Shown here piece after piece: positions 26,821-35,660 of a stretch of DNA of 64,000 nucleotides (positions within the stretch are counted from its first letter, which is position 1; every line of letters starts with the position of its first letter). The position numbers and the translations under genes are program-made. Source of the stretch: Escherichia coli (GTDB lineage: Bacteria; Pseudomonadota; Gammaproteobacteria; Enterobacterales; Enterobacteriaceae); the NCBI RefSeq assembly GCF_045037415.1, contig NZ_CP173438.1. One strand, given 5' to 3'. Under the pieces are notes generated by a model, which did no database searches, was not told where the DNA came from, and saw only the letters and a list, made by a program, of their open reading frames with translations.

Positions 26821-28968
26821 ATGAAAAAAGTCGTCACGGTTTGCCCCTATTGCGCATCAGGTTGCAAAATCAACCTGGTCGTCGATAACGGCAAAATCGT
26901 CCGGGCGGAGGCAGCGCAGGGGAAAACCAACCAGGGTACCCTGTGTCTGAAGGGTTATTATGGCTGGGACTTCATTAACGATACCCAGATCCTGACCCCG
27001 CGCCTGAAAACCCCCATGATCCGTCGCCAGCGTGGCGGCAAACTCGAACCTGTTTCCTGGGATGAGGCACTGAATTACGTTGCCGAGCGCCTGAGCGCCA
27101 TCAAAGAGAAGTACGGTCCGGATGCCATCCAGACGACCGGCTCCTCGCGCGGTACGGGTAACGAAACCAACTATGTAATGCAAAAATTTGCGCGCGCCGT
27201 TATTGGTACCAATAACGTTGACTGCTGCGCTCGTGTCTGACACGGCCCATCGGTTGCAGGTCTGCACCAATCGGTCGGTAATGGCGCAATGAGCAATGCT
27301 ATTAACGAAATTGATAATACCGATTTAGTGTTCGTTTTCGGGTATAACCCGGCGGATTCCCACCCAATCGTGGCGAATCACGTAATTAACGCTAAACGTA
27401 ACGGGGCGAAAATTATCGTCTGCGATCCGCGCAAAATTGAAACCGCGCGCATTGCTGACATGCACATTGCACTGAAAAACGGCTCGAACATCGCGCTGTT
27501 GAATGCGATGGGCCATGTCATTATTGAAGAAAATCTGTACGACAAAGCGTTCGTCGCTTCCCGTACAGAAGGCTTTGAAGAGTATCGTAAAATCGTTGAA
27601 GGCTACACGCCGGAGTCGGTTGAAGATATCACCGGCGTCAGCGCCAGTGAGATTCGTCAGGCGGCGCGGATGTATGCCCAGGCAGAAAGCGCCGCCATCC
27701 TGTGGGGCATGGGGGTAACCCAGTTCTATCAGGGCGTGGAAACCGTGCGTTCTCTGACCAGCCTCGCGATGCTGACCGGTAACCTCGGTAAGCCACATGC
27801 GGGTGTAAACCCGGTTCGTGGTCAGAACAACGTGCAGGGTGCCTGCGATATGGGCGCGCTGCCGGATACGTATCCGGGCTATCAGTACGTGAAAGATCCG
27901 GCTAACCGCGAGAAATTTGCCAAAGCCTGGGGCGTAGAGAGCCTGCCAGCGCATACCGGTTATCGTATCAGCGAGCTGCCGCACCGCGTGGCGCATGGTG
28001 AAGTGAGAGCGGCGTACATTATGGGCGAAGATCCGCTGCAAACTGACGCGGAACTGTCGGCAGTACGTAAAGCCTTTGAAGATCTGGAACTGGTTATCGT
28101 TCAGGACATCTTTATGACCAAAACCGCGTCGGCGGCGGATGTCATTTTACCGTCAACGTCGTGGGGCGAGCATGAAGGCGTGTTTACTGCGGCTGACCGT
28201 GGCTTCCAGCGTTTCTTCAAGGCGGTTGAGCCGAAGTGGGATCTGAAAACGGACTGGCAAATCATCAGTGAAATTGCCACTCGTATGGGTTATCCGATGC
28301 ACTACAACAACACCCAGGAGATCTGGGATGAGTTGCGTCATCTGTGCCCGGATTTCTACGGTGCGACTTACGAGAAAATGGGCGAACTGGGCTTCATTCA
28401 GTGGCCTTGCCGCGATACTTCAGATGCCGATCAGGGGACTTCTTATCTGTTTAAAGAGAAGTTTGATACCCCGAACGGTCTGGCGCAGTTCTTCACCTGC
28501 GACTGGGTAGCGCCAATCGACAAACTCACCGACGAATACCCGATGGTACTGTCAACGGTGCGTGAAGTTGGTCACTACTCTTGCCGTTCGATGACCGGTA
28601 ACTGTGCGGCACTGGCGGCGCTGGCTGATGAACCTGGCTACGCACAAATCAATACCGAAGACGCCAAACGTCTGGGTATTGAAGATGAGGCATTGGTTTG
28701 GGTGCACTCGCGTAAAGGCAAAATTATCACCCGTGCGCAGGTCAGCGATCGTCCGAACAAAGGGGCGATTTACATGACCTACCAGTGGTGGATTGGTGCC
28801 TGTAACGAGCTGGTGACCGAAAACTTAAGCCCGATTACGAAAACGCCGGAATACAAATACTGCGCCGTGCGCGTCGAGCCGATCGCCGATCAGCGCGCCG
28901 CCGAGCAGTACGTGATTGACGAGTACAACAAGTTGAAAACTCGCCTGCGCGAAGCGGCACTGGCGTAA
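26821..28968 (+). CDS. fdhF: FdhF, formate dehydrogenase H, selenocysteine at codon 140 (715 aa)
   Basis: Two in-frame six-frame ORFs (26821-27240 and 27289-28968) separated only by TGA at 27238-27240; N-terminal Fe-S cysteines (CPYCASGC) and molybdopterin oxidoreductase body. Confidence 0.95.
27241..27285 (+). other. SECIS stem-loop directing selenocysteine insertion at the fdhF UGA
   Basis: CACGGCCCATCGGTTGCAGGTCTGCACCAATCGGTCGGTAATGGC immediately 3' of the in-frame TGA; matches the fdhF SECIS as recalled. Confidence 0.85.
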
Positions 28969-29021
28969 TACCGCTTAAACTCACGTTAAAAGCGGTGATA
29001 TTACCCAACGCCTTTGTATCA

Positions 29022-29057
29022 ATCCGGAAACGACTCTCTGTTTCCGGATTTTTTTAT
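29022..29057 (+). terminator. Intrinsic terminator after fdhF
   Basis: ATCCGGAAAC-gactctct-GTTTCCGGAT hairpin followed by TTTTTTTAT. Confidence 0.85.
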
Positions 29058-29342
29058 ACATACCTGCGCAGTCAAACCAGCCTATCCTGGTTATTAGCGA
29101 CGTCTTCTCGGTTGTTCTTCTATTCCAGTCACGATTGCAAATGAGAATTATCTTTACTCAATTCTCATCGCGGCCTAACGTAATAATACTTTACATTTGA
29201 TGAACCAAATTTCGGTAAGGTGAGAAATCATCGACCGTTTAACTCGTTCTATTAACGGGATATTTTGGCGCGATTAATGCAACAAAACCCCGTCTGATAG
29301 AATATTAATAACCTCAAAGTAATTTCAGGGATTGGGAAGCAT

Positions 29343-30911
29343 ATGATTAAAAAACTATTACCTTTACTGGTTTTAAGCACAATTTCCGCCACAACCGTTG
29401 CCGCTACACCGCCTAATACGTTGGTTGTAGCCCAGGGGCTGGATGATATTGTGAGCCTGGACCCGGCAGAAGCTAATGAACTCTCAAGTATTCAGACTGT
29501 ACCAAGTCTGTATCAACGCGTAGTGCAACCGGACCGTAATGATCCGACGAAAATTACTCCGATTCTGGCGGAAAGTTGGCAGGCTGACCCCGCAGCCAAA
29601 ACGCTAACCATAAAACTGAAAAGCGATGCGAAATTTGCCTCTGGTAATCCGGTACGCCCGGAAGATGTGATTTACTCTTATGTCCGGGCTGTCACACTGA
29701 ATAAATCCGGTGCGTTTATTCTCAATGTGCTGGGATGGCAGCCGGAAAATATCGCCAGCCAGTTGAAGAAAATCGATGACCATACCGTCCAGGTGCAATG
29801 GAGTGCCGACGTCAGCCCGGCTCTGGCACTGAATATTCTCTCCACACCAATCGCCTCAATTGTTGACGAGAAGCTGGTTGCGCCAAACGCCAAAAATAAC
29901 GACTTTGGTAATGAATGGCTGAAGATGCATTCCGCTGGCAGCGGCGCGTTTAAAATGCGTACTTACCAACCGCATCAGGCCATCGTGATGGAAGCCAACG
30001 CCAGCTCACCAACCGGCGCCCCGAAACTGAAAAGCGTCATCATCAAAAATGTTCCCGATCCGGCAACACGTCGCCTGCTGATCCAACAAGGTGATGCTGA
30101 TATGGCTCGTGATCTGGGAGCCGATCAAATCGATGCATTACAGGGTAAACCTGGCGTAAAAGTGATGAGCATTGCCTCCGCCGAACAGAACTACCTGGCC
30201 TTCAATACCGGTAACAAGGATAACCCGCTGATGAGTAATCCTGCGTTCTGGGAGGCCGCTCGCTGGTTGGTCGATTACGACGGCATCACCAAAAATCTCT
30301 TAAAAGGACAATATTTTACCCATCAGAGTTTCCTGCCCGTGGGCTTTCCTGGAGCACTGGAAGAAACACCGTTTACCTTTAATCCAGCCAAAGCAAAAGA
30401 GATCCTCGCTAAAGCCGGAATCAAAGACCCGCACTTCACGCTTGATGTCGAAAATAAACCGCCATTTATTACCATCGCGCAGTCAATTCAGGCCAGCTTT
30501 GCTCAGGGCGGTGTAAAAGTTGATTTGCTGCCAGCCGCAGGGAGTCAGGTCTACTCTCGCGTTCGCGCCCACCAGCATCAGGGGGCCATTCGTATGTGGT
30601 TGCCTGATTATTTTGACGCACATTCCAACGCCAGCTCTTTCGCCTATAACGATGGCAAATCCAGCACCGTTGCCGGGTTAAACGGCTGGAAAATCCCGGA
30701 ACTGAACAAAGAAACGCTGGCGGCCATCGCTGAACCTGATAGCACTAAACGTCTTGATTTGTATAAGAAAATGCAACAAGAACTACAACGTAGTTCCCCG
30801 TATGTCTTTATTGATCAAGGCAAAACGCAAATTGTCATGCGTGATAATGTGCAGGGGTATCAACAAGGGTTGAATGCCGATATGGTCTGGTTTGATCAGG
30901 TAACCAAATAA
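29343..30911 (+). CDS. ABC transporter periplasmic substrate-binding protein, SBP family 5 (Opp/Dpp/Nik type), 522 aa
   Basis: ATG at 29343 after GGGAAG; signal peptide MIKKLLPLLVLSTISATTVAA; size typical of NikA/DppA-type binding proteins. Confidence 0.85.
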   Translation: MIKKLLPLLVLSTISATTVAATPPNTLVVAQGLDDIVSLDPAEANELSSIQTVPSLYQRVVQPDRNDPTKITPILAESWQADPAAKTLTIKLKSDAKFASGNPVRPEDVIYSYVRAVTLNKSGAFILNVLGWQPENIASQLKKIDDHTVQVQWSADVSPALALNILSTPIASIVDEKLVAPNAKNNDFGNEWLKMHSAGSGAFKMRTYQPHQAIVMEANASSPTGAPKLKSVIIKNVPDPATRRLLIQQGDADMARDLGADQIDALQGKPGVKVMSIASAEQNYLAFNTGNKDNPLMSNPAFWEAARWLVDYDGITKNLLKGQYFTHQSFLPVGFPGALEETPFTFNPAKAKEILAKAGIKDPHFTLDVENKPPFITIAQSIQASFAQGGVKVDLLPAAGSQVYSRVRAHQHQGAIRMWLPDYFDAHSNASSFAYNDGKSSTVAGLNGWKIPELNKETLAAIAEPDSTKRLDLYKKMQQELQRSSPYVFIDQGKTQIVMRDNVQGYQQGLNADMVWFDQVTK

Positions 30912-31010
30912 CCCTGTATGCAACTCGCGTCCAGCCATGTTACCGGGCGCGGTACCAGGGCTGGCCTGTATTGCAGGCCAGCCGCTGATTTATCACTGTA
31001 TGGAAAGATC

Positions 31011-32060
31011 ATGTCTGTCGTTTTTTCCACTCGCGCAAGATGGCGAGGCAAACGCCCTCTGCTCGCGCTGTTGCAAGGGCTGTTTACCGTTGCTCTGACG
31101 CTACTCGGCCTGCTGCTGATTACCTTTGCGCTTTCGGCTCTCTCACCGGTCGATCGCGTACTACAAATCGTTGGCGATCACGCCAGCCAGTCCACCTATG
31201 ATCAGGTACGCCACCAGTTAGGATTGGATCAGCCGTTAGCCGTCCAGTTCTGGCATTACCTGATGAATCTGGCACACGGCGATCTGGGCATCGCCAGCTC
31301 CACCGGGCAACCAGTACTCCAGGACTTGCTATCAGCATTCCCGGCGACCATTGAACTGGCAACGTTGGCGCTTATTGTCGGTGCTGTTGTCGGCGTCATT
31401 GCGGGTGTACTTTGCGCCCGTTATGTCGGTTCTCCGCTGGATTTCACCGTGCGAACATTAACTCTACTGGGAAATTCCGTCCCTGTTTTTTGGCTTGGTC
31501 TGCTGATGCTGGCGCTGTTCTACGCCAGACTGCAATGGAGTGCCGGGCCGGGCAGGCTGGATGATATTTATCAATTCACCATAGAACCCCGCAGCGGATT
31601 TGCGCTGATTGATACGTGGCTTTCTGGCGATCGCGAGGCATTTACCAATGCAATCAACCATTTGATACTTCCGGTTTTATTACTGGCGTACTTCTCGCTC
31701 GCCAGTATTACGCGCCTGACTCGTTCCGCCTGTCTTGGCGAAATGAATAAAGAATATATTCTGCTGGCGCGCGCCAAAGGGGCCAGCGAGATGACAATTT
31801 TGCTACGTCATGTTTTACCCAACATTCGCGGCACCTTGCTCACCGTTATCGCCCTCGCCTATACATCAATGCTGGAAGGCGCGGTACTGACAGAAACCGT
31901 CTTTTCATGGCCAGGTATTGGGCGCTACCTCACTACAGCGCTCTTCGCGGGTGATACCACAGCAATCATGGGAGGAACGCTGCTGATTGGCGTCTGCTTT
32001 GTGTTGATAAATAACTTAACCGACCTGCTGGTCCGGCTGACCGATCCGAGGTTACGCTGA
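31011..32060 (+). CDS. ABC transporter permease (DppB/NikB-like), about 349 aa
   Basis: Multi-TM; start at the in-frame ATG at 31011 after a hairpin (30976-30988); the six-frame ORF extends upstream to 30918, so the start is uncertain. Confidence 0.75.
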   Translation: MSVVFSTRARWRGKRPLLALLQGLFTVALTLLGLLLITFALSALSPVDRVLQIVGDHASQSTYDQVRHQLGLDQPLAVQFWHYLMNLAHGDLGIASSTGQPVLQDLLSAFPATIELATLALIVGAVVGVIAGVLCARYVGSPLDFTVRTLTLLGNSVPVFWLGLLMLALFYARLQWSAGPGRLDDIYQFTIEPRSGFALIDTWLSGDREAFTNAINHLILPVLLLAYFSLASITRLTRSACLGEMNKEYILLARAKGASEMTILLRHVLPNIRGTLLTVIALAYTSMLEGAVLTETVFSWPGIGRYLTTALFAGDTTAIMGGTLLIGVCFVLINNLTDLLVRLTDPRLR

Positions 32061-32893
32061 TGCCGATGTTTCTCTTTTTACGCCGTTTACGCCATTCACC
32101 CGCCGCGTTTTGCGGGTTGATAATTATCCTGTTATTGATGCTAATTGCGCTCTTCGCGCCGTGGCTGGCACCTCACGATCCTAACTGGCAGGATGCGGCG
32201 GCGCGATTACAAGCACCGAGTCGTCAGCACTGGCTCGGCACTGACAGTTACGGGCGAGACCTACTTTCACGTTTAATCTACGGCAGCCGCCCGGCACTGG
32301 GGCTGGTGGCATTGGTGACAATCATTACACTCCCGGTCGGTCTGCTGATTGGCATTTTAGCCGGGTACTACGGCGGCTGGCTGGAACGCGTGCTGATGCG
32401 TTTTACTGACATAGTAATGTCAATGCCGCGTTTAATTCTGGCTTTTGCTTTTGTTGCCATGCTGGGGCCGGGGCTGGTTAACGGCGCACTGGCCCTTGCA
32501 TTAACCACCTGGCCTGCTTATGCGCGTCAGGCACGGAGTGAGATCCAACGTCTGCGACACAGTGATTATCTTGCCGCCGCAGAAATGATGGGCATCCGCG
32601 GCAGGCGTCTGCTGGCTGGTCATATTTTGCCATTGTGCCTGCCATCTGCCATTGTCCGTCTGGCGCTGGATTTAGCGGGTATCATTCTGGCGGCTGCTGG
32701 TCTGGGTTTTCTTGGGCTTGGTGCTCGCCCGCCAATGGCGGAATGGGGAGCCATGATCGCCGACGGTATGCAGGTCATTTTTGATCAATGGTGGATTGCC
32801 GCCGCTCCCGGCGCAATTATCTTAATTGCCAGTCTGGCCTTTAATCTGCTGGGTGATGGCTTGCGCGATGTTCTGGAGCCTCAACATGACTGA
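32060..32893 (+). CDS. ABC transporter permease (DppC/NikC-like), 277 aa
   Basis: Multi-TM; start overlaps the previous stop. Confidence 0.85.
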   Translation: MPMFLFLRRLRHSPAAFCGLIIILLLMLIALFAPWLAPHDPNWQDAAARLQAPSRQHWLGTDSYGRDLLSRLIYGSRPALGLVALVTIITLPVGLLIGILAGYYGGWLERVLMRFTDIVMSMPRLILAFAFVAMLGPGLVNGALALALTTWPAYARQARSEIQRLRHSDYLAAAEMMGIRGRRLLAGHILPLCLPSAIVRLALDLAGIILAAAGLGFLGLGARPPMAEWGAMIADGMQVIFDQWWIAAAPGAIILIASLAFNLLGDGLRDVLEPQHD

Positions 32894-33722
32894 CTCACGT
32901 CTTAGTATCAACAATCTCTGCGTCGATTATCCGGAGTCCCGGGTCGTCAACAATGTCAGTTTTACATTAGGCAATGAACGTCTGGCGCTGGTCGGTGAGT
33001 CGGGTTCAGGTAAGTCCATGACCGCCCGCGCCCTGATGGGGCTGGTGCGTAAACCGGGTGTAGTAACCGCGGACACACTTAACATTCTGGGGCGTGATGC
33101 ACTCACCCTTAACGCGCGTGGATGGCAACAGTTGCGCGGTAACGATATCGCGATGGTATTGCAAGATCCGCGTTACGCGCTTAATCCAGTAAAGACAGTA
33201 AAAGCGCAACTGGAAGAGGCGCTTACGCTCCATCAACGTCTGAACCGCCGCGAGAAAGAAGAGAAAATAAACACCGCAATTCAGGCTGTCGGCCTCAATA
33301 CGCGAGTACTGCAAAGCTATCCTCGTGAACTTTCTGGCGGCATGGGGCAGCGAGTGATGATTGCAATTGCGCTCATCAACGATCCCCGGGTATTGATTGC
33401 CGATGAGCCAACATCAGCACTAGATGTGCGCCTGCGTAATCAGATTCTGGAACTGCTGGTTACCCAGTGTGAACAACGTCAGATGGCAATGTTGCTGATC
33501 AGTCACGACCTGCCATTAGTTGCCCAATTTTGCCATCGGGTGCTGGTGATGTATCAGGGAAATAAGGTGGATGAAATGCACGCTGCTGCGCTACCTACAG
33601 CAACGCATCCTTACACGCGCACACTGTGGACTTGCCGCCCAAATGCACAAACTTACGGGCAGATGCTGCCGACGCTGGACAGGACGGCAATGACGCCGGA
33701 GAAATACCATGACGATTGTTGA
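32886..33722 (+). CDS. ABC transporter ATP-binding protein (DppD/NikD-like), 278 aa
   Basis: ATG at 32886 overlapping the permease stop; Walker A GESGSGKS, signature LSGGMGQR, Walker B LIADEP. Confidence 0.85.
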   Translation: MTDSRLSINNLCVDYPESRVVNNVSFTLGNERLALVGESGSGKSMTARALMGLVRKPGVVTADTLNILGRDALTLNARGWQQLRGNDIAMVLQDPRYALNPVKTVKAQLEEALTLHQRLNRREKEEKINTAIQAVGLNTRVLQSYPRELSGGMGQRVMIAIALINDPRVLIADEPTSALDVRLRNQILELLVTQCEQRQMAMLLISHDLPLVAQFCHRVLVMYQGNKVDEMHAAALPTATHPYTRTLWTCRPNAQTYGQMLPTLDRTAMTPEKYHDDC

Positions 33723-34413
33723 AATTAATCACTTACAGGTGACTTTTGCTGAGAAAACCGCAGTTTCTGCCGCCAGTTTTTCGGTTAATGCCGGAGAGAC
33801 ATTTAGTTTAATTGGCGAATCAGGCTGCGGAAAATCCACGATTTTGCGCGTAATTGCTGGATTACAGCGCGACTGGCACGGTCAGGTGTCACTGTTTGGG
33901 CACACCATCAAACCAGGAATGCGTTTTCAGGGCGATCTCCGCCGCAATGTGCAAATGGTGTTTCAGGATCCCTATGCCTCGTTGCATCCCAATCATACTC
34001 TGTGGCGAACGCTGGCTGAACCACTCAAAATTCGTGGCGAAAGAGAAATAGAAAAACGCGTCCAGACTGCACTGGAACAGGTTGGCTTGCCTTTCGACGC
34101 CGCTCGTCGCTACCCACACCAGCTTTCCGGTGGTCAACGGCAACGTGTGGTTATTGCTCGCGCCCTGTTGTTACGACCACAACTTCTTCTGCTGGATGAA
34201 CCCACCTCGGCGTTGGATATGTCGGTACAAGCGGAAATCCTTAATTTGTTGAATCAACTTAAGCTGGAACACCAAATGACATATCTGCTGGTCAGTCACG
34301 ATGCCGATGTCATCGCGCATATGTCTGATCGAGCGGCATTGATGTCCGAGGGAAAAATTCAGCGATTTTTTGATCGCGACGCCATGGAAAAGGGGGAACA
34401 TCGGATGGATTAA
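33709..34413 (+). CDS. ABC transporter ATP-binding protein (DppF/NikE-like), 234 aa
   Basis: Walker A GESGCGKST, signature LSGGQRQR, Walker B LLLDEP; overlaps the previous gene. Confidence 0.85.
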   Translation: MTIVEINHLQVTFAEKTAVSAASFSVNAGETFSLIGESGCGKSTILRVIAGLQRDWHGQVSLFGHTIKPGMRFQGDLRRNVQMVFQDPYASLHPNHTLWRTLAEPLKIRGEREIEKRVQTALEQVGLPFDAARRYPHQLSGGQRQRVVIARALLLRPQLLLLDEPTSALDMSVQAEILNLLNQLKLEHQMTYLLVSHDADVIAHMSDRAALMSEGKIQRFFDRDAMEKGEHRMD

Positions 34414-34523
34414 AAAACCTGACATTGCATTAATTCATTCTGCTTTCAGGTCTTTTTACAGTTGTTTTTTTGTCCACCCGAACACTTTATACTGTCTCTC
34501 CCCTACCAAACTTCATTATCAAA

Positions 34524-35213
34524 ATGAAAAAAATTATCACTTTGATGTTGTTTTTGACATTCTTTGCCCACGCGAACGACTCCGAGCCTGGCAGCCAGTA
34601 TTTAAAGGCAGCAGAGGCCGGAAACCGACGCGCACAATATTTTCTTGCCGACAGCTGGTTTAGCTCCGGCGATTTGAGCAAAGCCGAATATTGGGCACAG
34701 AAAGCCGCCGACAGCGGTGATGCCGATGCCTGCGCGCTGTTGGCGCAGATCAAAATCACCAATCCGGTCAGTCTGGACTATCCACAAGCAAAAGTGCTTG
34801 CCGAGAAAGCAGCGCAAGCGGGCAGTAAAGAAGGTGAAGTAACGCTGGCGCATATTCTGGTAAATACGCAAGCGGGTAAACCGGATTATCCAAAGGCGAT
34901 TTCGCTGTTAGAAAACGCCTCGGAAGATCTGGAGAACGACTCTGCCGTCGATGCCCAAATGCTGCTTGGTTTGATTTACGCCAACGGCGTGGGCATTAAG
35001 GCCGACGATGACAAAGCAACCTGGTATTTCAAACGTAGCTCTGCGATTTCCCGAACCGGTTATTCCGAATACTGGGCGGGAATGATGTTCTTAAACGGTG
35101 AAGAGGGTTTTATCGAGAAGAATAAACAAAAGGCGCTGCACTGGTTGAATCTGAGCTGTATGGAAGGATTTGATACCGGTTGTGAAGAGTTTGAAAAATT
35201 AACTAACGGTTAA
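34524..35213 (+). CDS. yjcO: YjcO, Sel1-repeat secreted protein (229 aa)
   Basis: ATG at 34524 giving MKKIITLMLFLTFFAHA signal peptide and Sel1/TPR-like repeats. Confidence 0.88.
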   Translation: MKKIITLMLFLTFFAHANDSEPGSQYLKAAEAGNRRAQYFLADSWFSSGDLSKAEYWAQKAADSGDADACALLAQIKITNPVSLDYPQAKVLAEKAAQAGSKEGEVTLAHILVNTQAGKPDYPKAISLLENASEDLENDSAVDAQMLLGLIYANGVGIKADDDKATWYFKRSSAISRTGYSEYWAGMMFLNGEEGFIEKNKQKALHWLNLSCMEGFDTGCEEFEKLTNG

Positions 35214-35215
35214 GG

Positions 35216-35660
35216 TAGGCGCAGCAAACGTCGCATCAGGCATTGATGTCGGATGCGGCGTAAACGCCTTATCCGACCTACAAAAATCACGCCAAATCAG
35301 GCTATTGCGCTGTCTGACGTAGGCCTGATAAGACACGTCAGCATCGCATCAGACATTGATGCCGGATGCGGCGTAAACGCCTTATCCGACCTACAAAAAT
35401 CACGCCAAATCAGGCTATTGCGCTGTCTGGCGTAGGCCTGATAAGACGCGGCAAGCGTCGCATCAGGCGTTGATGTCGGATGCGGCGTAAACGCCTTATC
35501 CGACCTACAAAAATCACGCCAAATCAGGCTATTGCGCTGTCTGGCGTAGGCCTGATAAGACGCGTTAAGCGTCGCATCAGGCGTTGATGTCGGATGCGGC
35601 GTAAACGCCTTATCCGACCTACAAAAATCACGCTACATCAGGCTATTACTCAGTCAGGCA
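35216..35660. repeat. BIME/REP cluster: four tandem copies of a 114-124 bp composite REP unit
   Basis: GGATGCGGCGTAAACGCCTTATCCGACCTAC recurs at 35240, 35364, 35478 and 35592, each followed by GTAGGCCTGATAAGAC...GCGTCGCATCAG. Confidence 0.9.

Follow-up and report, generated by a model that had tools for sequence, protein, structure and literature searches.

A candidate importer operon of the PepT family at the fdhF-yjcO junction of Escherichia coli, kept by phylogroup B2 and lost from K-12

Escherichia coli has several described importers of the PepT (Opp/Dpp/Nik) family of ATP-binding cassette (ABC) transporters (TC 3.A.5), among them DppABCDF (dipeptides and haem), NikABCDE (nickel), GsiABCD (glutathione) and DdpABCDF. 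The last (b1483-b1487 in K-12) is a presumed D,D-dipeptide importer whose transport activity is itself only putative in the K-12 annotation. A further, uncharacterised member is encoded in the window analysed here, a 64,000-nt stretch of the E. coli contig NZ_CP173438.1 whose positions serve as coordinates throughout. The operon (29343-34413) consists of five intact open reading frames (ORFs), all on the + strand, at the junction between fdhF and yjcO, and encodes a substrate-binding protein (SBP), two permeases and two ATPases (Table 1). Its membership in the PepT family is secure as judged from sequence homology; the type of system is well known and the architecture unsurprising. We consider the chance slightly better than even that the operon is a functional importer of a small peptide-like or amino-acid-derived compound. 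Comparison with related genomes gives good support to the view that it is ancestral at this junction and that the K-12 state is a clean deletion.

Each of the five proteins matches NCBIfam models of Dpp, Nik, Ddp or Opp components over its full length, and none reaches a curated equivalog cut-off. An earlier note on this DNA, made from the letters alone, had proposed a five-gene Opp/Dpp/Nik-family importer between fdhF and yjcO, with 522 residues for the SBP and 278 and 234 for the ATPases. The ORFs bear out both the gene set, with E-values far beyond chance, and the lengths. For the SBP, PF00496 is found on its protein cluster, and an AlphaFold2 model has a mean predicted local distance difference test (pLDDT) score of 94.4, low only at residues 1-20 (the signal peptide). 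A Foldseek comparison of this model with the Protein Data Bank returned more than 170 chains of the cluster-C fold at E <= 0.001 and probability 1.0; all cluster-C specificities match alike at 16-23% identity, and the search does not separate binders of peptides, glutathione, opines, signal molecules and nickel. The permeases form a pair of B and C types, with full-length NCBIfam matches to DppB/NikB and DdpC/NikC/DppC, and a homologous operon at 55-56% identity carries the permease domains BPD_transp_1_N/BPD_transp_1 and OppC_N/BPD_transp_1. In Pfam the ATPases match ABC_tran only (E 1.5e-25 and 1.6e-35), with no match in either to the C-terminal domain oligo_HPY (PF08352); the earlier statement that they lack the long extension of the Opp/Dpp type thus stands. 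Their Walker A, signature and Walker B motifs (Table 1) are intact. ATP-driven uptake of the SBP-bound ligand is predicted for the operon.

The closest E. coli paralogue of the SBP is DdpA, at 30% identity over 508 residues (159 bits, BLASTP). By the same measure DppA (24%, 115 bits) and NikA (25%, 80 bits) lie further away; GsiB is 22% identical, and its NCBIfam model NF011942 scores 107 bits on the SBP against a cut-off of 594. None of these four characterised E. coli transporters, at 22-30% identity, is near-identical to the SBP. The Ddp system shares with the operon an identical gene order (A, B, C, D, F) and a W-x-P-D-(Y/F)-x-D motif common to DdpA and the SBP, and permease 2 reaches 279 bits with the DdpC model. 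However, the ATPases DdpD and DdpF have 328 and 308 residues as opposed to 278 and 234 here. The dipeptidase ddpX is linked to Ddp, whereas no dipeptidase is linked to this operon or to its counterparts in 80 species, the enterobacterial orthologue set comprising the best 80 of the 155 loci of a species-representative scan. DdpA is a paralogue at 30% identity and not an orthologue, and its specificity is not transferable to the SBP because the identity is too low.

DppABCDF has the same fold and architecture, and DppA is the best solved-structure match by sequence (E ~1e-27). In a joint alignment at ~24% identity, at which residue comparisons are only moderately secure, DppA Asp408, which holds the peptide amino group, corresponds to Asp422 of the SBP in a W-x-P-D-Y-F-D motif. 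The subfamily part of that alignment consists of eight sequences, down to 40% identity; Asp422 is kept in all eight and also in a separate 65-sequence consensus, WxxDYxDPH. In contrast, DppA Arg355, which holds the peptide carboxylate, aligns with Pro373 of the SBP beside a deletion of 7-13 residues. On the DppA equivalog NF043070 the SBP reaches 106 bits, where the cut-off is 1005, and oligo_HPY is another point of difference from the Dpp system.

NikABCDE and the staphylococcal Nik/Cnt systems resemble the operon in gene order, in the division into five separate genes, in the shortness of the ATPases and in the approximate size of the SBP. The earlier note had remarked on the likeness in size to NikA, which is agreed, and leaned towards a Nik type, which is not upheld. 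The nikA equivalog TIGR02294 scores 110 bits on the SBP against a cut-off of 393, and the CntA model NF047575 scores 84 against 800. NikA Arg97, Trp100, Arg137 and His416, which we take to be the Ni-(His)2 contacts in NikA structures, are replaced by Asn128, Gly131, a gap and Lys439, and the only NikA positions shared are the general Trp398 and Tyr402. Neither a NikR gene nor the NikR operator (GTATGA-N16-TCATAC) is present at this operon, and no cntKLM-type synthesis genes are linked in the 80 species. In the GsiABCD/GbpA/HbpA group, GbpA is the top Foldseek match (E 1.7e-38) with GsiB (YliB) close behind, but GsiA is a fused double ATPase, unlike the two separate short ATPases here, and GsiB has Ser where the SBP has Asp422. 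Since Asp422 is kept while the Nik contacts and Arg355 are not, the pocket appears neither Nik-like nor canonically Dpp-like, and the ligand in it probably carries a free amine.

The operon occupies the same site in E. albertii, where the region is collinear from mdtO past gltP. Its genes are 89-93% identical in nucleotide sequence between the two species, with a synonymous divergence (dS) of 0.25-0.45 and a ratio of nonsynonymous to synonymous divergence (dN/dS) of 0.03-0.11; the corresponding values are 96%, 0.22 and 0.014 for fdhF and 94%, 0.30 and 0.018 for yjcO, and mdtOP is 84% identical. The five reading frames are intact in both the window and E. albertii, and the operon is under purifying selection across the E. 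coli-E. albertii divergence. Same-site collinearity and a divergence in step with the flanks indicate that the operon already stood at this locus in the common ancestor of the two species. The earlier note had described the genes as inserted between fdhF and yjcO; the collinear copy in E. albertii and the flank-like dS point instead to a deletion in K-12, whose junction lacks the operon. The missing segment is defined by alignment of the K-12 junction to the window (Table 1), and no repeats or mobility genes were found at its boundaries. Insertion of a mobile element was ruled out: the segment has neither flanking repeats nor an integrase or transposase, and the G+C content of the coding part is unremarkable (0.48-0.55, compared with 0.52-0.57 in the mdtOP-fdhF flank and 0.50 in yjcO). 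With the deletion went the strong terminator at 29021-29050, where B2 E. coli and E. albertii end fdhF transcription. In K-12-type genomes a 14-bp insertion, CCTCCTTTCGGAGG, stands before the old T-run (window 34446-34472 compared with 1670-1710 of the K-12-type locus L002); it is missing from both B2 E. coli and E. albertii. Together with the old T-run, CCTCCTTTCGGAGG forms a new fdhF terminator, and its insertion looks like a repair after the deletion.

Mapping of presence and absence across E. coli, as the earlier note had proposed, located the operon at the fdhF-yjcO junction in 1043 of 5426 complete genomes, each at an identity of at least 99% to a 5.9-kb query. The flanks were matched without the operon in 4375 of 5418 genomes, and about 81% of complete E. 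coli genomes lack it. In K-12 and O157:H7, fdhF and yjcO lie 94 bp apart, in agreement with the adjacency in K-12 stated in the earlier note. Named carriers include Nissle 1917, UTI89, ATCC 25922, NRG 857C, the avian pathogenic E. coli (APEC) strain IMT5155, an O2:K1:H5 APEC strain and JJ2434, all of which we take to be phylogroup B2 strains. That the operon has been kept by the B2 lineage and E. albertii, and is gone from K-12 and most other E. coli, is well supported. Two of the matches are labelled as plasmids. One of these, the 94-kb record NZ_CP048307.1 ('plasmid p009_C'), is a chromosomal stretch with the same flanks, mdtO-fdhF-operon-yjcO-gltP, and its label is probably an assembly or labelling artefact. 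Strain 14EC007 (NZ_CP024131.1, 6001-11070 of the compared locus), labelled E. coli, has an operon 93.4% identical to that of the window with a frameshift in the ATPase 2 gene; being as distant from the window operon as E. albertii, it may be E. albertii under a wrong label or represent a divergent lineage.

The operon has never been studied in the model strain because it is absent from K-12. In CFT073 its locus tags are presumably about c5075-c5080. No publication on it was found when the searchable literature was queried by gene names, protein accession and probable locus tags, and a preprint rich in mentions of yjcO concerns an unrelated deletion in a long-term evolution experiment. In the B2 commensal MP1, the five-gene cluster SID94_19700-19720 is reported as the most strongly induced in Kapi1 lysogens (PMC12922286); from the part of that source available, the cluster could not be matched to the operon.

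Outside Escherichia, SBP orthologues at 72-87% identity occur in about 80 Enterobacterales species, in genera that include Kluyvera, Enterobacter, Klebsiella, Raoultella, Kosakonia, Phytobacter, Leclercia, Buttiauxella, Cedecea, Serratia, Yersinia, Morganella and Proteus; true SBP orthologues overall span 72-98%. When the ORFs of the 80 loci were clustered, only the five genes moved as a unit, at differing chromosomal sites. Their neighbours are housekeeping genes of ordinary kinds that vary by clade (betIBA and a GNAT gene; proP and patA; argI and pyrBI; fepA and entD), and no enzyme or regulator recurs beside the cassette in the 80 species, which fits a substrate that would enter general metabolism. 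At greater distance, 469 clusters match the SBP at E <= 1e-30 among 1.84 billion representative proteins. Many of them, at 35-56% identity, are far closer to it than any characterised protein, and by homology the SBP is assigned to a sizeable subfamily in which no characterised member was found. Genomic contexts of homologues at 38-56% identity, which consist of short contigs or unrelated neighbours, gave no functional clue.

The promoters of the orthologous cassettes follow a common layout: a dyad TTAT-N11-ATAA, a gap of 15-16 nt, ACTTT in the -35 region and CTAACGT as the -10 region. Klebsiella, Kluyvera and Enterobacter have the dyad in the form TTATGC-N7-GCATAA; in Buttiauxella, Cedecea, Proteus and Morganella it is ATA-N9-TAT. 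If one mismatch is allowed, TTATGC-N7-GCATAA is found in 29 orthologous promoters, in 28 of which the box lies 107-116 nt upstream of the ATG, and the remainder of the 1.28 Mb holds a single further copy; the wider box TAT-N11-ATA is present in 62 of the 76 promoters scanned. The centre of the dyad lies at about -63, counted from the presumed -10. A position near -63 and a T-N11-A form are typical of LysR-type activators, and the box is predicted to be a LysR-type activator site in these genera. ATA-N9-TAT is the consensus of NAC (PMC10540941). NAC was considered as the regulator and set aside: it fits the genera with ATA-N9-TAT but not the Klebsiella/Enterobacter form, ATG-N9-CAT. The regulator of the TTAT-N11-ATAA box is left unnamed here because that form deviates from the NAC core.

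Both E. coli and E. albertii retain the -35 and -10 parts of this promoter and have lost the left half of the LysR-type box. The core promoter listed in Table 1 is predicted from its homology to the ACTTT...CTAACGT promoter conserved across genera. The two species agree at every position of the 66 nt around it but not over the rest of the spacer, which argues for a promoter that is functional and differently controlled in Escherichia. The perfect dyad ATGAGAATT-N10-AATTCTCAT that straddles the -35 is possibly a repressor site; no known operator consensus fits it, and no Fur, NikR or Zur match rises above chance. The earlier note had suggested a search upstream of the operon for metal-responsive operators. 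Scans for Fur, Zur and NikR over 28969-29342 found none above chance, and the three motifs are not enriched in the 76 orthologous promoters. A candidate Fur box at AAATGAGAATTATC scores 12/19, a score reached by 60 of 171 equal-size windows, and is not enriched in the orthologous promoters either. Read as a NikR operator, the dyad becomes ATGAGA-N16-TCTCAT, with half-sites unlike GTATGA, and the best match of 9/12 is at chance level. Consensus scans of the operon promoter region for Zur, MntR, NsrR, CRP, FNR and ArcA gave nothing convincing, and the leader has no match to a riboswitch or known RNA in Rfam at E <= 1.

RefSeq annotates the same five genes, under generic names only, in a strain 100% identical over the region, and shows no regulator gene adjacent to them; the absence of a linked NikR-like or other regulator, as stated earlier, thus holds at the locus. 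RefSeq places the start of permease 1 at 31011, and the orthologue cluster has a median of 349 residues; the mechanical ORF, from 30918, is longer. The operon had been described as translationally coupled. This is consistent with the overlaps of 1, 8 and 14 nt among the last four genes but does not extend to the SBP gene, which is followed by a gap of 99 nt. The hairpin reported in that gap is real, although it lies at 30959-30983 and not at 30976-30988. Strong hairpins of unrelated sequence stand at the same position in most orthologues. In importers that depend on a binding protein, a familiar arrangement is a 3' structure that shields the mRNA of the upstream cistron or partly terminates transcription, giving an excess of SBP; by analogy, the stem-loop here probably acts in one of these ways. 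Five Enterobacter/Lelliottia loci (L016, L017, L019, L028 and L033) have long palindromes, GCCGGGTGGCGC...TACCCGGCCTAC, of the repetitive extragenic palindromic (REP) kind between the SBP and permease genes, which fold at -50 to -70 kcal/mol; the hairpins found there in other genera are unrelated. At the far end of the operon, where a weak terminator-like structure is found, read-through into yjcO is possible.

Table 1. Positions and properties of the operon, its control regions and the segment missing from K-12, in window coordinates.
Feature	Coordinates	Strand	Details
Segment lacking in K-12-type E. coli	28972-34446		~5.48 kb; from alignment of the K-12 fdhF-yjcO junction to the window
fdhF intrinsic terminator	29021-29057	+	11-12-bp stem, 100% complementary, with T-run; inside the segment absent from K-12
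66-nt block identical in E. coli and E. albertii	29134-29199	+	Holds predicted core promoter and dyad; intergenic region otherwise 86% identical
Perfect 9-bp dyad ATGAGAATT-N10-AATTCTCAT	29141-29168	.	Straddles -35; candidate repressor site; Escherichia only, absent from other genera compared
Predicted sigma-70 core promoter	29153-29181	+	-35 TTTACT (29153-29158), 17-nt spacer, -10 TAACGT (29176-29181)
5' leader	29182-29342	+	~110 nt longer than in other genera
SBP gene	29343-30911	+	522 aa; Sec-type signal peptide at about residues 1-21; SBP_bac_5 fold, DdpA-like subfamily; PF00496 and AlphaFold2 model
Intercistronic stem-loop after SBP gene	30959-30983	+	11-bp stem, 8 G-C pairs, weak T tail
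Permease 1 (DppB/NikB-like)	31011-32060	+	349 aa; full-length matches, 243 bits to DppB and Opp2B
Permease 2 (DdpC/NikC/DppC-like)	32060-32893	+	277 aa; start overlaps permease 1 stop codon by 1 nt
ATPase 1	32886-33722	+	278 aa; Walker A GESGSGKS, signature LSGGMGQR, Walker B LIADEPTSALD; oligo_HPY absent
ATPase 2	33709-34413	+	234 aa; Walker A GESGCGKS, signature LSGGQRQR, Walker B LLLDEPTSALD; without C-terminal extension
Weak terminator-like operon end	34417-34472	+	6-bp stem, long loop, T-runs; fold -8.6 kcal/mol

The upstream neighbours are mdtO, mdtP and fdhF (26821-28968); downstream lie yjcO (34524-35213) and then gltP. An in-frame TGA, the selenocysteine codon, splits fdhF into 26821-27240 and 27289-28968 in the ORF list, and the RefSeq name of the gene varies between genomes from 'selenocysteine-containing' to plain 'subunit alpha'. 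The yjcO-gltP spacer (35220-35647) holds 3.8 tandem copies of a 114-bp unit at 93% matches with REP-type palindromes, an array resembling a bacterial interspersed mosaic element (BIME), and the E. albertii copy of the spacer matches three successive registers of it.

In the favoured reading, a secreted SBP would capture a small ligand and dock on a heterodimer of the two permeases, and the two separate short ATPases would drive import. The stable stem-loop that sets the SBP cistron apart would let the SBP accumulate in excess. The ligand would be a peptide-like or amino-acid-derived compound with a free amino group, used as a nitrogen or nutrient source, and probably neither nickel nor a metal chelate. 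The operon has been inherited vertically, having stood at fdhF-yjcO in the ancestor of E. coli and E. albertii, and remains under purifying selection in B2; a single clean 5.5-kb deletion would have removed it from other E. coli lineages. In other Enterobacterales the cassette would be driven by the conserved promoter with its LysR-type box, which Escherichia has lost; it has the dyad over the -35 instead.

Other ligands have to be weighed against this one. An importer of a non-peptide amino conjugate, such as an opine, an Amadori sugar-amine, an amino-acid amide or a plant or host signal like the ligands of AapF or MoaA, is unlikely. MoaA (mannopinic acid), AgaA, AccA, AapF (HEHEAA) and the amino-acid-amide binder 8UPI score like peptide binders, a homologue at 39-40% identity adjoins a PfkB kinase, and many carriers belong to plant- or soil-associated genera, for example Kosakonia, Phytobacter, Buttiauxella and Serratia. 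However, a catabolic enzyme, kinase or amidase, usual for opine and amide systems, is linked in none of the 80 enterobacterial genomes, and the closest paralogue is DdpA. Quite improbable, too, is a second importer of nickel or a metal chelate, NikABCDE- or Cnt-like, whose SBP would bind Ni-(His)2 or a metallophore complex. Among NCBIfam models, nikA nominally ranks first for the SBP, the scores of the permeases are as good on staphylococcal NikB/NikC (Opp2B/C) as on Dpp/Ddp, the two short ATPases lack oligo_HPY as do NikD/E and CntD/F, and the SBP is about the size of NikA. Yet both the nikA and CntA scores fall far short of their cut-offs, the four NikA residues are replaced, and NikA is a more distant paralogue than DdpA or DppA. 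Moreover, the window and the 76 orthologous promoters hold no NikR, Fur or Zur sites above chance, and metallophore synthesis genes are linked in 0 of the 80 species.

Two further alternatives question whether the operon is a working nutrient importer. That it is a silent remnant in Escherichia, decaying since the loss of the activator box and heading for deletion, seems very unlikely. The LysR-type box of other genera is degenerate in Escherichia, most complete E. coli genomes lack the operon, and one E. albertii-like strain has the ATPase 2 frameshift, but the low dN/dS holds over the whole E. coli-E. albertii divergence, the five frames are intact in both, the 1043 E. coli copies are all at least 99% identical, and the promoter block has been conserved between species to a degree that the other spacer sequence has not. 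A Sap-like system for antimicrobial-peptide resistance or export is hardly credible: the models of SapA, SapB, SapC, SapD and SapF give moderate matches and SapA structures are among the fold matches, but the Sap scores lie below those of Dpp, Nik and Ddp and far under their cut-offs, and E. coli already has sapABCDF.

Several observations weigh against the preferred reading of a peptide-like or amino-acid-derived ligand and an ancestral, differently controlled operon. Between the SBP and any protein of known specificity the identity is only 20-30%, ligand classes are not told apart by the fold search, and the residue comparisons depend on alignments at the low identity given above. The loss of the counterpart of DppA Arg355 implies that there is no canonical dipeptide pocket, and short ATPases without the C-terminal domain are typical of Nik and Cnt systems. 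Promoter and regulator are deduced from sequence conservation only, and the Klebsiella/Enterobacter box departs from the NAC core. Finally, no other Escherichia species has a representative among the best 80 of the 155 loci, so one has to assume either several losses or that the deletion allele spread long ago by recombination.

A bolder proposal, tentative and on the whole doubtful, is that the SBP founds an undescribed PepT specificity class. Its ligand would be an amino compound derived from the host, the diet or the microbiota, and not an ordinary di- or oligopeptide, glutathione, nickel or a known opine. Activation would be LysR-type, possibly nitrogen-responsive, in most Enterobacterales, with a repressor-type rewiring in Escherichia. 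If this were true, retention of the operon by B2 would give that lineage a nutrient which other E. coli cannot use.

The useful outcomes of the comparison are an apparent insertion turned into an ancestral locus lost in K-12, the exclusion of a Nik reading and a conserved promoter box as an experimental handle. The first of these corrects a common reflex: a block that is 'extra' relative to K-12 is here not an acquired island but an ancestral locus that K-12 has lost. The promoter box in other genera offers a direct route to the regulator. Phylogroup B2 is the source of most extraintestinal pathogenic E. coli, responsible for urinary and bloodstream infections, and of the probiotic Nissle 1917. 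Conserved chromosomal genes that set B2 apart are candidates for niche adaptation and possible lineage markers, and the operon belongs to this set. If its ligand were known, the list of what B2 strains can scavenge in the gut or urine would grow by one nutrient (or metal).

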